Positions 19,599 to 23,967 of a stretch of 64,000 nucleotides of DNA are shown one piece after another. How positions within the stretch are numbered: the first letter of the stretch is position 1; each line of letters opens with the position of its first letter. The position numbers and the translations under genes were made by a program. Source of the stretch: Nitrospinaceae bacterium (GTDB lineage: Bacteria > Nitrospinota > Nitrospinia > Nitrospinales > Nitrospinaceae). Where the stretch lies: NCBI GenBank assembly GCA_965223665.1, contig OZ245011.1:128001-192000 (forward strand), read 5' to 3'. The notes below the pieces were generated by a model. The model had not been told where the DNA came from. It made no database searches and worked only from the letters and a program-made list of their open reading frames with translations.

Positions 19599-20069
19599 AT
19601 GCAGGGCGATGAAAAGATCATTGAAGGATTAAATGAAGTGTTGACGGCAGAATTGACAGCTATCAACATATATTATATCCATTATAAAATGCAGAAGAAT
19701 TGGGGCTTTGACAAGTTAGCTGAGCATGCACGGGAAGAATCAATGGGGGAAATGAAACATGCGGATGCAATCATTGAACGAATTTTGTATTTGGATGGAA
19801 CTCCAAACATGGCTCGCTATGACACCGTTTTGGTTGGCGACTCCTGTGAAGAGCATCTACGCAATCAATATGAAATTGAAAAAAAACATGTTGATCGTCT
19901 CAAAAAAATTATCAGTCAGTGTATTGAATGTCAGGATTTTGGTACGAAGGAGATCCTCGATAGCATTTTAGAAGATACAGAAGAAAGTTGTGATTGGATT
20001 GAAACCCAATTTCAACGAATTCAAGATGTTGGTATTCAAAACTACCTTGCCGAGCATATGCATTCATGA
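19599..20069 (+). CDS. bfr: Bacterioferritin with an atypical ferroxidase centre
   Basis: MQGD, E18, EMKHAD (E51/M52/H54), RILYLDGTPN, E94; AGGAGG RBS. Confidence 0.92.
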   Translation: MQGDEKIIEGLNEVLTAELTAINIYYIHYKMQKNWGFDKLAEHAREESMGEMKHADAIIERILYLDGTPNMARYDTVLVGDSCEEHLRNQYEIEKKHVDRLKKIISQCIECQDFGTKEILDSILEDTEESCDWIETQFQRIQDVGIQNYLAEHMHS

Positions 20070-20546: not shown

Positions 20547-20575
20547 TTGACAATGATTCTCAATTTCTATATAAA
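20547..20575 (+). promoter_or_regulatory. Sigma70 promoter overlapped by Fur box 1
   Basis: TTGACA-17 nt-TATAAA. GACAATGATTCTCAATTTC (20549-20567) matches 14/19 of the Fur consensus GATAATGATAATCATTATC. Confidence 0.75.
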
Positions 20576-20589
20576 TATTAAACATTAAT

Positions 20590-20608
20590 GATAATGATTT
20601 TCAAAATC
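20590..20608 (+). promoter_or_regulatory. Fur box 2
   Basis: GATAATGATTTTCAAAATC, 15/19 match to the Fur consensus, just downstream of the predicted transcription start. Confidence 0.78.
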
Positions 20609-20626: not shown

Positions 20627-20887
20627 ATGGCTAATTCAACAGAATTCACTATAAAAGTTTGTCAAGGGCCGGGGTGTAAGGCATGGGGTGCAGAAGGGCT
20701 TTTAAAGGAGCTTGTCAACCGGACAGGTATTAAATCCTCAAAGAATGGAAAAAAAGTTTGTGGTGCTCCCTGTATGAATCGCTGTGGCGGTGGAACCTCT
20801 GTACTGGTTGGTGATGATCAATCATTTATGAAAATTCGTGAATCTTCTCTTTCGTCTATGCTCTGTACCTTGCCGGCTTCAGCCTGA
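20627..20887 (+). CDS. Thioredoxin-like [2Fe-2S] ferredoxin domain protein
   Basis: IKVCQGPGCKAWGA (Cx4C) and PCMNRCGGG (Cx3C). Start moved to ATG 20627 because the ATG at 20588 overlaps Fur box 2. Confidence 0.78.
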   Translation: MANSTEFTIKVCQGPGCKAWGAEGLLKELVNRTGIKSSKNGKKVCGAPCMNRCGGGTSVLVGDDQSFMKIRESSLSSMLCTLPASA

Positions 20888-20939
20888 GGCAATTTTATTC
20901 GGTGGGAATTACCTCCTCCAACTGAAGTCGGCAGGTACA
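20864..20939 (+). promoter_or_regulatory. Long RNA hairpin spanning the ferredoxin stop codon and containing an anti-Shine-Dalgarno sequence
   Basis: TGTACCTTGCCGGCTTCAG pairs with CTGAAGTCGGCAGGTACA; inner GAGGCAATT pairs with AATTACCTC. Confidence 0.6.
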
Positions 20940-20975
20940 TGTTTTATGACTTTATTTTCCCCATGGGGAGGTTTT

Positions 20976-21292
20976 ATGAGCATAGTGATTGTTGGTGGGT
21001 TGGATTGCTGGAAGCGCATATATGAAATACAGGGGAAAAGATTAGGTATTTAGTTTAAGGTTTTGGAGGGAAAGTTCCTGCTTTAGTGAAAAGAATTTCC
21101 AGGGTGGAGGGTATTGCTGTATTTACAAGTATGGTTTCTCACCCTTTTTTGGATGAGGTCAATCAATCTGCCCGTTGAAATAAAATTATGATCATCAGAA
21201 TAAATACAAGCAGTGCTTCTGGGCTTAAGCGCTGTTTAGTGGAATTTTTTAAATACCGACAAAGCCAAAATCGTTTTTTGTTTTTGGCTTAA
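20976..21292 (+). pseudogene. DUF2325-family pseudogene
   Basis: GGGGAGG RBS, then MSIVIVGGLDCWKRIYEIQGKRLGI*FKV / frameshift / GGKVPALVKRISRVEGIAVFTSMVSHPFLDEVNQSAR*NKIMIIRINTSSASGLKRCL. Stops at 21051 and 21176; one base missing near 21061-21064. Confidence 0.72.
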
Positions 21293-21335
21293 TTTTTTGT
21301 TGGATCGAACCATTAGTTGAGGAGGTAATTAAGTA

Positions 21336-22658
21336 ATGAAACAGTTAAGTAGGATGGCTGGAGTTTTGGCTTTTGCTTTCTGGGTTATGATGACCCTGGG
21401 AGGTTTGCCTAATGCTCTTGCCGCAACAGGGGATGATGCGGGAGATGATGACATTATCATTATCGAAGAGGAAGGCGCGGATGATATTGGAGAGTTGTCC
21501 AACCAATTCGATCTATTAGCCGATGAAATCACAGAAATTCGTGATACGTTTGGAAGTTTTAGAAAGAATGTGAACGTCACTGGTTATGGGGAAGTGCATA
21601 TTAACGCTCCAACAGATGGCGGAAACACGGTATTTGATGCGCATCGGTTCGTAATCGGTATTAATGCTCGATTTACCGATTGGATTTTTCTTAATGTCGA
21701 AGTGGATTATGAGCATGGTGCGCAGCAACTTGAATTTGAAATGGGATATTTGGATTTTTTAATTAATCCTCTTTTTAACCTGCGGGTGGGTGTCGTTTTG
21801 ATTCCTGTTGGCTTTCTCAACGAATACCATGAACCGGTTTTCTTCTGGACTGTAGAACGCCCTCTATTACAAAGCCAAATTATTCCCACGTCTTGGCAAG
21901 GAACAGGTGGAGGTGCTTTTGGAACAGTAAATGCTTTAGGTGGAATCAACTACCGTCTATATGTCGTAAATTCACTTCAATCAGTTAGGCCTAACGGGTT
22001 TGGTTCAGGTTCCGGTGTTGGTAATGGGGGCAATTCTGGGCGTTTCCGTTCCTCAAGTGGAATTCGAAGTGGTAGGTTGCAGCCTAATAATGCAATTGGT
22101 GAAGATATTGCGGTTACTGGTCGTTTGGAATTTACCGGTCTGTTTCCTGGTTTACAAGTTGGATTGTCATTTTGGACTGGCGATACCACTCATGAAATCA
22201 TTCAAGCTAATGGACGCACCACGCTTCTAGAGGCGGATGTGAAGTTTCGAATCCAATGGTTTGAAATGAATGCAACTATTGCCAATATTCATGTGAACGA
22301 TGCCGAAGTTATAAATGCTTTTATGACTACTCAAGTCGCAGCGGGAGGAAACCAAAATGTCGCCTCGAATATGTTGGGATATAATATTCAAGTGGGTGTC
22401 CATGTTCCTCAATTGTTAAATATGGGGACAACCCAGGATTTTGTTGTTCACTTTATGTATGAGTTTGTCGATACACAGGATTCGGCTGCACCGGGTTTTG
22501 CCAATCTGGCTCAATTTGAACGTGATGTGTATACTGCCGGTTTTGCTTGGTTTGCCACTCCCAATGTGGCTTTGAAAGCTGACTTTACGCATGTAACAAC
22601 TGGCGTCGGTACTTCTACAAGTACCGCTAACTTTGGTATGGCCTATATGTTCTTTTAA
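21336..22658 (+). CDS. Outer-membrane beta-barrel porin, probably iron-regulated
   Basis: Signal peptide, acidic/coiled N-terminus, GYGEVH...FDAHRFV...EVDYEH...GFLNEYHEP..F..VERP, C-terminal Phe; GAGGAGG RBS. Confidence 0.8.
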   Translation: MKQLSRMAGVLAFAFWVMMTLGGLPNALAATGDDAGDDDIIIIEEEGADDIGELSNQFDLLADEITEIRDTFGSFRKNVNVTGYGEVHINAPTDGGNTVFDAHRFVIGINARFTDWIFLNVEVDYEHGAQQLEFEMGYLDFLINPLFNLRVGVVLIPVGFLNEYHEPVFFWTVERPLLQSQIIPTSWQGTGGGAFGTVNALGGINYRLYVVNSLQSVRPNGFGSGSGVGNGGNSGRFRSSSGIRSGRLQPNNAIGEDIAVTGRLEFTGLFPGLQVGLSFWTGDTTHEIIQANGRTTLLEADVKFRIQWFEMNATIANIHVNDAEVINAFMTTQVAAGGNQNVASNMLGYNIQVGVHVPQLLNMGTTQDFVVHFMYEFVDTQDSAAPGFANLAQFERDVYTAGFAWFATPNVALKADFTHVTTGVGTSTSTANFGMAYMFF

Positions 22659-22728: not shown

Positions 22729-23304
22729 ATGTGGACAAAAAATAATAAACCTTCTTTCCAAAATGTTTGGACATTTGGCTTGTTGTTGACATTCTTTTTG
22801 GCAAGTTGGTTCGCTAACCCGGTTTGGGCAGCGGACGCCAGTTCCAAAGAAAAAGCCATCAGAGCGGCATTTTCTGGGGCCGATAAAATCGTTAAAAAGA
22901 AAGTCTGGATTAATGATATTCAGAAACGGAAAATAAGTAATATCTGTAAGCAAGTTATAGAGGACAAAAGAGTAAACTATTTTGTTGGCTATAAAGGGGG
23001 TAAACCTCTAGGATTTGCAACTATTGAAACTGTTAAAAACAGATCTTTCCCAATAACCTATATGACAGTTCTTAATGAAGATGGTTCCGTTCAGGATGTT
23101 AAAGTCCTGGACTATCAAGGACCTCGTGGTAACTTTAGTGTTCTTAATGATTCCTGGTTGGACCAATACGATGGTAAAAATGCGGATTCTGATTTTAGTA
23201 ATCCAACCAAAGTCGTGGGTGCCAGAATTGCTATTCGGACTATCAATAACGGAGTTTATAAAGCCGTCGCGGCTTATAAGGTATTGATGTTAGATAAGAA
23301 ATGA
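22729..23304 (+). CDS. Exported FMN-binding domain protein, paralog 1 (degenerate flavinylation motif)
   Basis: Signal peptide; PITYMTVLNEDGSVQDVKVLDY; VVGARIA where TGAT is expected. Confidence 0.78.
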   Translation: MWTKNNKPSFQNVWTFGLLLTFFLASWFANPVWAADASSKEKAIRAAFSGADKIVKKKVWINDIQKRKISNICKQVIEDKRVNYFVGYKGGKPLGFATIETVKNRSFPITYMTVLNEDGSVQDVKVLDYQGPRGNFSVLNDSWLDQYDGKNADSDFSNPTKVVGARIAIRTINNGVYKAVAAYKVLMLDKK

Positions 23305-23328: not shown

Positions 23329-23967
23329 TTGTTAAAGTTTTTGAAATTTAATGAAGGAAATACTTCTGCCCAATCCTGGAATGTTTTCAGGATTGGGTTG
23401 TTGTGTTTGGGATTTGTTATTCTTTTTCTTCCCTTGGATTACAGTCTTGCTCAGGATAAAGACAAGAAAGAAGAAGAGGAGGAATACGTTGAGCGGGTTT
23501 TCTTTACCAAAAAGCAGGCATTGAAGCATGCTTTTCCTGGAGTAAAAAAATTTAAAAAGAAAAAAGTATGGTTAACTCCTTCTCAACGAGAGGCAATCAG
23601 CAAAATTACTGGTGAAAAATATAATGAAAGACGCATCACTTTTTTTGAAGGCATTAAAGGTGATCAAACCCAAGGTTTTGTGACCATTGGAAACGAAATT
23701 GGACGATCTTATCCAATCACGTTTATGGTGGTTATTACACCTGAAGGAACCGTTAAGGATGTGGAGATCATGGTTTATCGGGAACCTCATGGCTGGGAGG
23801 TGCAATTTGAATACTTCATGAAACAGTTCTTTGGACGTGATGCAAGCAACCCTTTTGATAATATAAATAATATTACAGGTGCTACTCTTTCAGTACGTTC
23901 TATGACTAGGGGAGTAAAAAAGGCAGTGGCAGCTTATAAAGTATTGTTCTTAGATAAAGTAGAATAG
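23329..23967 (+). CDS. Exported FMN-binding domain protein, paralog 2
   Basis: PITFMVVITPEGTVKDVEIMVYREPHGWEV...F..QF and NITGATLS ([S/T]GA[S/T] flavinylation motif). Confidence 0.85.
   Translation: MLKFLKFNEGNTSAQSWNVFRIGLLCLGFVILFLPLDYSLAQDKDKKEEEEEYVERVFFTKKQALKHAFPGVKKFKKKKVWLTPSQREAISKITGEKYNERRITFFEGIKGDQTQGFVTIGNEIGRSYPITFMVVITPEGTVKDVEIMVYREPHGWEVQFEYFMKQFFGRDASNPFDNINNITGATLSVRSMTRGVKKAVAAYKVLFLDKVE

Follow-up and report, generated by a model that had tools for sequence, protein, structure and literature searches.

A conserved hairpin with an anti-Shine-Dalgarno loop motif between an iron-sulfur protein gene and a porin-like gene of Nitrospinaceae

We study here a stretch of 64,000 nucleotides (nt) of the Nitrospinaceae genome G000 (C1:128001-192000), called the window in what follows, and, inside it, an RNA hairpin that joins the end of a gene for a small iron-sulfur protein to the region upstream of a porin-like gene. 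Positions are those of the window, and all features of the locus lie on the + strand. The gene order is the following: a bacterioferritin gene, bfr (19599-20069; PF00210, E 2e-31); a promoter with two Fur-box-like sites; a thioredoxin-like [2Fe-2S] ferredoxin-type open reading frame (20627-20887), which we call the FeS ORF; the hairpin (20864-20939); a DUF2325 pseudogene (20976-21292); a gene for a porin-like outer-membrane beta-barrel (21336-22658); and an FMN-binding/RnfG-like pair.

The hairpin is 76 nt long, with a main stem of 19 base pairs (bp), including one bulge and one G.U pair, and an apical region of 37 nt. Its 5' arm consists of the last codons of the FeS ORF and of its UGA stop codon (20885-20887). 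The minimum free energy (MFE) of this structure is -36.6 kcal/mol, to be compared with a mean of -19.3 and a standard deviation of 3.0 for 200 dinucleotide shuffles, none of which folds as low (z -5.83): the hairpin, which had been pointed out in an earlier note on this DNA, is well established. The apical region carries the anti-Shine-Dalgarno-like (anti-SD) motif ACCUCCUCC, at 20911-20919, within a longer anti-SD stretch at 20907-20923, and the letters ACCUCCU of the motif are identical to the 3' end of the 16S ribosomal RNA (rRNA) of G000. In the MFE fold of the closed hairpin only 9 of the 17 bases of the stretch are paired, and the ACCU core (20911-20914) is unpaired with probability 0.66-0.85. 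On the hairpin strand of the window, no Rfam 15 family is matched with an E of 1 or less, the only hit being a chance similarity to mir-652 on the opposite strand (E 0.16), and the loci of six relatives give no match at all.

How widely the structure is conserved was evaluated on 30 FeS loci fetched from genomes of the order, and on seven loci obtained by an unbiased protein-based search of metagenomes. Four of the fetched loci have a CCUCCUC hairpin after the stop codon: the window, G001, which belongs to the same genus (g1), and G006 and G015, from a second genus. All six of the close metagenome loci (49-54% identity) have both the hairpin and the motif, and the seventh, at 26% identity, does not. 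This gives ten loci, from four Nitrospinaceae genomes and six metagenome contigs, L059 to L064, obtained from coastal sediment, among which L060 and L061 are identical in this region and L059 and L062 nearly so. In each of the ten, the 5' arm is formed by the last codons and the stop codon of the orthologous FeS ORF, so that translation up to the stop codon must open the arm. The heptamer CCUCCUC is invariant in the ten loci, in contrast with the inner stem and the other positions of the loop, which vary; the motif CCUCCUCC is found in nine of them, with CCUCCUCG in L064, and the window has CCUCCUCCA.

The two species of genus g1 give a first measure of the constraint. Their hairpins are identical at 75 of 76 positions, the single change turning a U-A pair into U.G, and the non-coding part of the hairpin at 51 of 52, which is above the 86.8-88.2% identity of the coding DNA of bfr, the FeS ORF and the porin gene. 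Identity is 75% in the 36 nt that follow the hairpin, 80.8% in DUF2325, and 60% in the spacer between bfr and the FeS ORF.

The second measure comes from the other clade, for which an alignment of seven sequences, six of them distinct, could be built. There the hairpin is made of three helical segments capped by an apical loop, with 29 consensus pairs and 93% of the cells of the alignment paired, while slid registers reach at most 56%. Five pairs show compensatory changes, a value matched in 1 of 500 shuffles; the sequences of the inner stem differ completely between G006, G015 and L059; and many G.U pairs place the RNA on the + strand. In the closed hairpins of G015, L059 and L060 the motif is fully unpaired. 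A covariance model of this form, run against 102 genomes, finds nothing beyond its own training genomes.

The porin gene follows in nine of the ten loci, and the contig of the tenth (L062) ends inside DUF2325. In G009, the only genome of its kind, the promoter, the FeS ORF and its tail are kept, there is neither DUF2325 nor porin downstream, and the apical hairpin and the motif are gone. Conversely, G002 and G012, where the porin is present and the FeS ORF absent, lack the motif. Among the fetched loci, and in the model scan of the 102 genomes, the motif hairpin was never found away from the junction between the FeS ORF and the porin. In family f2, the position of the hairpin is taken by a Fur-box promoter for DUF2325. 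Taken together, the comparisons support a functional RNA element that is selectively maintained in a small clade of Nitrospinaceae. As a separate observation, by direct reading, three loci of genus g4 (L006, L008 and L023) have a canonical terminator after the FeS ORF, made of a GC stem and T7, followed by the porin with the Shine-Dalgarno sequence (SD) GGAGGAGGU, and they contain neither DUF2325 nor the anti-SD hairpin.

The earlier note had treated DUF2325 as a gene with its ribosome-binding site (RBS), but in the window it is broken by an in-frame TAG at 21051, a frameshift near 21066-21075, and an in-frame TGA at 21176, and the same lesions are present in Logan contigs from four DNA-type runs of one sample. 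The orthologue of G001 is intact, with 105 amino acids (aa), and matches PF10087 (E 1.7e-22); the gene is also intact in G006, G015 and L059, and in L062 as far as the contig reaches, and it is broken or deleted in the window, in L060/L061, in L063 and in L064. In three metagenome lineages it was deleted or truncated independently, with the flanking FeS ORF, hairpin and porin intact. The pattern is that of a repeated loss of DUF2325 from an otherwise conserved operon, and the hairpin does not depend on this gene: it persists where the gene is broken or deleted.

The family assignments of the two other genes are weak. The FeS ORF encodes 86 aa, with the motifs Cx4C and Cx3C and the C-terminal tail MLCTLPASA; its match to PF01257 (E 3.6e-4, 20.9 bits) is under the cut-off of 24.8 bits, and NuoE-family matches are also obtained. 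Orthologues exist in 64 of 102 genomes of the order and the alignment shows a conserved protein, with lengths of 84-88 aa. The earlier note had made of this ORF a [2Fe-2S] leader protein: the two cysteine motifs are indeed there, the assignment to a family is less secure, and the alignment points to a normal conserved protein rather than to a leader peptide. The porin-like protein, of 440 aa, has an OMP_b-brl match that is below the cut-off (E 0.015); by direct reading, its N-terminus resembles a signal peptide and its C-terminus is ...MAYMFF. Orthologues are present in 26 of 41 related genomes. Downstream of it lie the genes of two paralogous secreted proteins (22729-23304 and 23329-23967), the second with an FMN-binding/RnfG-like domain (PF04205, E 5e-9); both may take part in a redox system, iron-regulated and located in the outer membrane or the periplasm.

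We now turn to the possible targets of the motif. The RBS region of the porin gene (21315-21330), with its SD GAGGAGGU at 21319-21326, is complementary to the stretch 20907-20923: a direct reading gives 12 contiguous pairs, a one-base bulge and 4 more pairs, as the earlier note had reported, and RNAduplex yields -24.1 to -26.2 kcal/mol. Ranked by the energy of the duplex with the loop, the porin start region takes the 5th place among the 4833 crude start regions of the genome. Perfect 12-mer inverted pairs at most 600 nt apart number 13 in the window, for a mean of 8.8 and a maximum of 19 in 30 Markov-simulated windows: the inverted pair by itself is ordinary, and its placement at the start of the porin gene is not. 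The contact of about 8 nt that had been proposed with the DUF2325 RBS (20965-20972) also exists, as an 8-bp match that includes one G.U pair, at -15.6 kcal/mol. The porin SD itself belongs to the loop of a small hairpin formed locally (21311-21338), the start codon being part of its stem; a loop-loop contact between this hairpin and the anti-SD hairpin is conceivable.

The extended complementarity is not found in the relatives. In the 43 nt before the porin ATG of G001 there are three substitutions, all on paired positions and none of them compensated, which leaves 13 of 16 pairs, 8 of them contiguous, at -17.7 instead of -26.2 kcal/mol, a value equivalent to rank 316 of 4833. The complementarity to the porin SD is 12 nt long in the window, against 8 nt in G001 and 5-6 nt in the six sequences compared from the other clade. 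When each whole locus is searched for a cis partner of the loop that is conserved, the porin RBS is selected only in the window and in G001. The 12+4 pairing is thus specific to the genome G000, and the part that is conserved is a generic anti-SD facing generic SDs.

These results bear on the mechanism put forward in the earlier note. It proposed that a ribosome reaching the UGA opens the 5' arm and frees the anti-SD, which turns the porin off, and that a nascent chain without its cluster stalls the ribosome and leaves the porin on. Several features are in its favour: the stop codon is inside the 5' arm in the ten loci, the freed anti-SD can form a duplex of -24 to -26 kcal/mol with the porin RBS in G000, and when all the RNA upstream of 20900 is single-stranded this pairing has probability 0.5-1.0 and becomes the MFE structure. 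However, when only 20860-20900 is forced open, the folding that the note suggested, the probability of pairing is about 0.005. Moreover, the hairpin and the RBS duplex were said to be mutually exclusive, which is overstated: the motif is largely exposed in the closed hairpin, so that the stem need not be opened. The sequence of the FeS ORF has no sign of an arrest sequence, and the relatives show the extended pairing to be neither conserved nor covarying, which is the first of the outcomes that the note had listed as refuting it. An alternative pairing exposed by the position of the ribosome, a feature of leader-peptide and translation-coupled attenuators, is strong only in the window and is not conserved. 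A switch flipped by translation termination, or by the loading of an Fe-S cluster on the nascent protein, is therefore not supported, and we consider the complete model very improbable. The anti-SD role that the note gave to the loop fares better, and is a reasonable one, CCUCCUC being the most conserved part of the element.

Any action of the loop on downstream genes in cis requires that they share a transcript with it. The promoter of the FeS ORF (20547-20575) has the -35 element TTGACA (20547-20552), a 17-nt spacer and the -10 element TATAAA (20570-20575). Its -35 element and spacer harbour a 17-nt Fur-box-like palindrome (20547-20563), the only place in the window that matches, with at most 3 mismatches, the box located upstream of DUF2325 in family f2. 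A second Fur-box-like site, AATGATAATGATTTTCAA, is read directly in the 5' leader of the FeS ORF (20587-20604), its label being based on its likeness to the Fur consensus and on a Fur-family neighbour gene in G023. The promoter and both sites are kept in the nine loci inspected, and the link of the locus with iron is supported by G023, where the Fur-family gene (PF01475, E 1.1e-12) adjoins the FeS ORF. The same type of 17-nt box, TTGAnAATnnTnaTCAA, is seen before DUF2325 in family f2 and directly before the porin in G012, which suggests that, across the order, the porin is a member of a Fur-type regulon.

In the other clade, the Fur-box/-35 element that f2 has at this place is reduced, in our reading, to a remnant of 13/17 after the hairpin, with no -10, so the porin probably depends on read-through; transcription from the FeS promoter, as one transcript that includes the hairpin, is plausible. 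Scans of the window and of G006 detected no sigma-70-like site on the gene strand between the hairpin and the porin, but they are uninformative, as the -10 rule of the scanner misses even the conserved TTGACA-17-TATAAA promoter. We also considered, and dropped, a sigma-54-like reading of a box containing TGGCA before the porin of the other clade: a direct reading shows that the GC of the -12 element is missing.

With these elements in hand, the reading that we favour, with a probability of roughly 0.4, is that the hairpin is an anti-SD module on a Fur-controlled FeS-(DUF2325)-porin transcript, and that it damps downstream RBSs in cis. The module comprises the last 7-8 codons and the UGA of the FeS gene, together with 50-70 nt of downstream RNA. 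Its apical part presents the invariant CCUCCUC(C), which has the same letters as the anti-SD core of the 16S rRNA, and the exposed motif would pair with the SD of a downstream cistron, chiefly the porin. Such a pairing would lower the access of ribosomes, and probably the stability of the messenger RNA (mRNA), and would thus set the output of the porin relative to that of the first gene; in G000, a generic contact of 5-8 bp would have been lengthened to 12+4 bp. We prefer an action in cis because the motif hairpin occurs only where the FeS ORF precedes the porin, and is lost in G009. There is also a precedent, from a preprint (PMC12697547): anti-SD-like 8-12-mers located several hundred nt from an SD in Bacillus subtilis pair with it in vivo, speed up mRNA decay and cut translation, and anti-SD-like sequences are depleted from genes.

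A number of observations weigh against action in cis. The six sequences of the other clade have GGAGGG as their porin SD, which makes 5-6 bp with the loop; the porin RBS, with ranks between 991 and 3172 of 4833, and the DUF2325 RBS, with ranks between 393 and 3857, are no better partners than an average start region; covariation between the flanks of the loop and those of the RBSs was looked for in the relatives, and none was found. The motif is 190-500 nt away from the candidate RBSs, and nested folding gives the pairing a probability of about 0 unless all upstream RNA is open. The entire apical region of 37 nt is frozen between the two species of g1, which is more than an anti-SD of 8 nt needs. 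The argument drawn from G009 relies on a single genome. The covariance model of the other clade gives the hairpin of the window 11.6 bits (E 0.77) and does not recognise it, so that the two forms are tied together by their position, their shared coding 5' arm, and the motif. Finally, two features could disturb the shared transcript: G001 has a weak promoter-like site inside DUF2325, and an AU-rich hairpin with a T-run (about 21256-21300), kept in G001, is found where the DUF2325 pseudogene ends, 40 nt upstream of the porin start, and could act there as a weak terminator or attenuator.

The most serious competitor is an action in trans, in which a stable small RNA is derived from the 3' end of the Fur-controlled FeS mRNA, and its CCUCCUC loop seeds the SDs of other mRNAs, for instance in iron sparing. 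The earlier note had this alternative in mind as well, and we hold it to be possible, though somewhat unlikely. It would explain why the motif is invariant despite the loss of DUF2325 and despite differing downstream RBSs (GGAGGG versus GAGGAGG), and why the apical region is frozen in g1 whereas the flank of the porin RBS drifts. The architecture is like that of one unit of the cuckoo/CcsR RNAs: a variable stem, a loop with CCUCCUCC(C), and an origin in the 3' untranslated region (UTR) of a small-protein gene (PMC4615179, PMC8034643); and Fur-controlled small RNAs that hit SDs through C-rich single-stranded regions, IsrR and FsrA, are known (PMC9410917). A moderately U-rich tract follows the stem in the window, but the other clade has neither a U-tract after the hairpin nor a terminator-like site, which leaves the formation of a 3' end unexplained. 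A single module is present, against 2-4 in cuckoo RNAs. The element was never found away from the FeS-to-porin junction, and in G009, where the downstream genes are missing, the motif and the apex are lost although the FeS gene and its promoter remain.

The hairpin might also serve in processing, stability or termination, as an RNase III-type site, a 3' stabiliser, or a partial or complete terminator that uncouples the FeS mRNA from the downstream cistrons; its loop motif would then be a protein-binding site, or have no SD-related role. A long (25-30 bp) and nearly perfect intercistronic duplex suits this role, as do the canonical terminator that genus g4 has at the same place, the combination of a variable stem and a fixed loop, which is also typical of protein-bound hairpins, and the frozen 37-nt apical region of g1, which fits a protein or tertiary contact. 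But the fixed letters are exactly those of the 16S anti-SD core, a coincidence that this explanation leaves aside; the other clade has no U-tract; and Rfam offers no known family for the hairpin strand. We find it improbable on balance. In its simplest version, an intrinsic terminator, it was rejected: such a terminator has a GC stem directly followed by a U-tract, and the 8 nt after the stem contain 5 U in the window and 4 in G001, with no such tract in the other clade. A scan of the G006 region gives 0 terminator-like sites, but the limit of 3-8 nt that the scanner puts on loops would make it miss this hairpin anyway.

Other candidates were examined and set aside. A bacterial selenocysteine insertion element, with its UGA and hairpin, does not fit: Aragorn finds 44 transfer RNAs, none of them for selenocysteine, and the read-through frames, of 12-45 codons, are not alike. 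A pairing of the icaR type with the RBS of the FeS ORF itself was discarded, the SD there being weak or absent, for example in G015 and L059, and no FeS start complementing the loop. An RBS or ORF on the minus strand under the motif was also discarded, because in the window, G006 and G015 no start codon lies at the distance expected from an SD, and the G.U pairs favour the + strand. The recurrent partner of the loop found about 136 nt upstream corresponds to the run of Gly-Gly-Gly codons in the CGGG motif; since this site is weak in the window, it was taken as a codon effect. Lastly, the match of the 5' arm of the inner stem with the DUF2325 RBS is not above background, and the stem stays where DUF2325 is deleted.

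Outside the window, G000 has two copies of another hairpin, at C1:2238711-2238756 on the - strand and C2:35725-35768 on the + strand, that are 94% identical over 53 nt. Each has a stem of 13-14 bp and an 18-nt loop containing ACCUCCUC, followed by a T-run, and lies beside a divergent, putative helix-turn-helix/XRE-like ORF, labelled from a reading of its peptide. They are possibly a small RNA or the leader of a mobile element.

In the ocean, nitrite is oxidised mainly by Nitrospinaceae, which have a high demand for iron. A conserved, covarying RNA element in a Fur-box-controlled operon whose last product is an outer-membrane channel offers a testable handle on post-transcriptional control of iron in Nitrospinota. 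No paper on an RNA regulator in this phylum surfaced in our literature searches, which were narrow and none of which was aimed directly at the question. The most ambitious proposal, that of a cuckoo-like anti-SD module outside Alphaproteobacteria that would be the first iron riboregulator of Nitrospinota, either as a translation-coupled brake on a channel or as an iron-sparing 3'-end RNA, seems doubtful for now.

Three groups of known systems can be compared with the element. The small RNAs IsrR and FsrA, as presented in PMC9410917, share with it a Fur-box promoter upstream and a C-rich unpaired loop motif suited to G-rich SDs. They differ in that each is an independent gene, ends at its own terminator and has several C-rich regions, and no relation of sequence or synteny links them to the present locus.

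The long-range anti-SD:SD pairings, known from the Gill et al. 2025 preprint (PMC12697547) and from the 3'-UTR motif UCCCCUG of icaR (PMC3868564), have in common with our case a pyrimidine-rich stretch that lies hundreds of nt from an SD and can pair with it, and the 12-nt match of G000 has the length of the 12-mer reporters of the preprint. There, the anti-SD is downstream of the RBS that it blocks; here, it is upstream of the candidate RBS and downstream of the RBS of the FeS ORF, and a self-repression of the icaR type does not fit, because this last RBS is often without an SD. Selection also differs: the anti-SD-like sequences of the preprint are selected against within mRNAs, and here such a sequence is selected for, and held in a structured loop, which makes it a natural case of the exception.

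The closest likeness is with the cuckoo/CcsR RNAs and with alpha-r14 (NfeR1), which have variable stems around a fixed anti-SD-like loop, just as the stems of G006, G015 and L059 differ completely around CCUCCUC. Cuckoo/CcsR RNAs have 2 to 4 adjacent hairpins with the loop motif CCUCCUCCC and variable stems (PMC4615179), are liberated by RNase E from the 3' UTR of a gene for a small protein (PMC4615179, PMC8034643), and were found by a family screen only in Alphaproteobacteria, in 78 of 2,680+9 genomes (PMC4615179, PMC8034643); alpha-r14 pairs with translation-initiation regions (PMC10746234). At our loci there is one CCUCCUC hairpin in each of the ten, much longer, with 25-30 bp in three helical segments, and it overlaps the stop codon of an ORF; the 9-mer loop CCUCCUCCC is complete only in G015, the motif being here CCUCCUC(C). 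The upstream gene encodes a 2Fe-2S protein rather than a DUF1127 protein, the host is a member of the Nitrospinaceae rather than of the Alphaproteobacteria, and there is no Rfam match, with the reservation that the Rfam accession holding the cuckoo RNAs was not confirmed. Membership in the cuckoo/CcsR family is consequently not supported, while a likeness of mechanism is possible, by analogy. The element also shows that CCUCCUC(C) hairpin loops, which these sources catalogue as a family only in Alphaproteobacteria, arise elsewhere too; and what is new, with respect to the known riboregulatory modules with an anti-SD in a hairpin loop, is the phylum, the gene context, and a single long hairpin laid over a stop codon.

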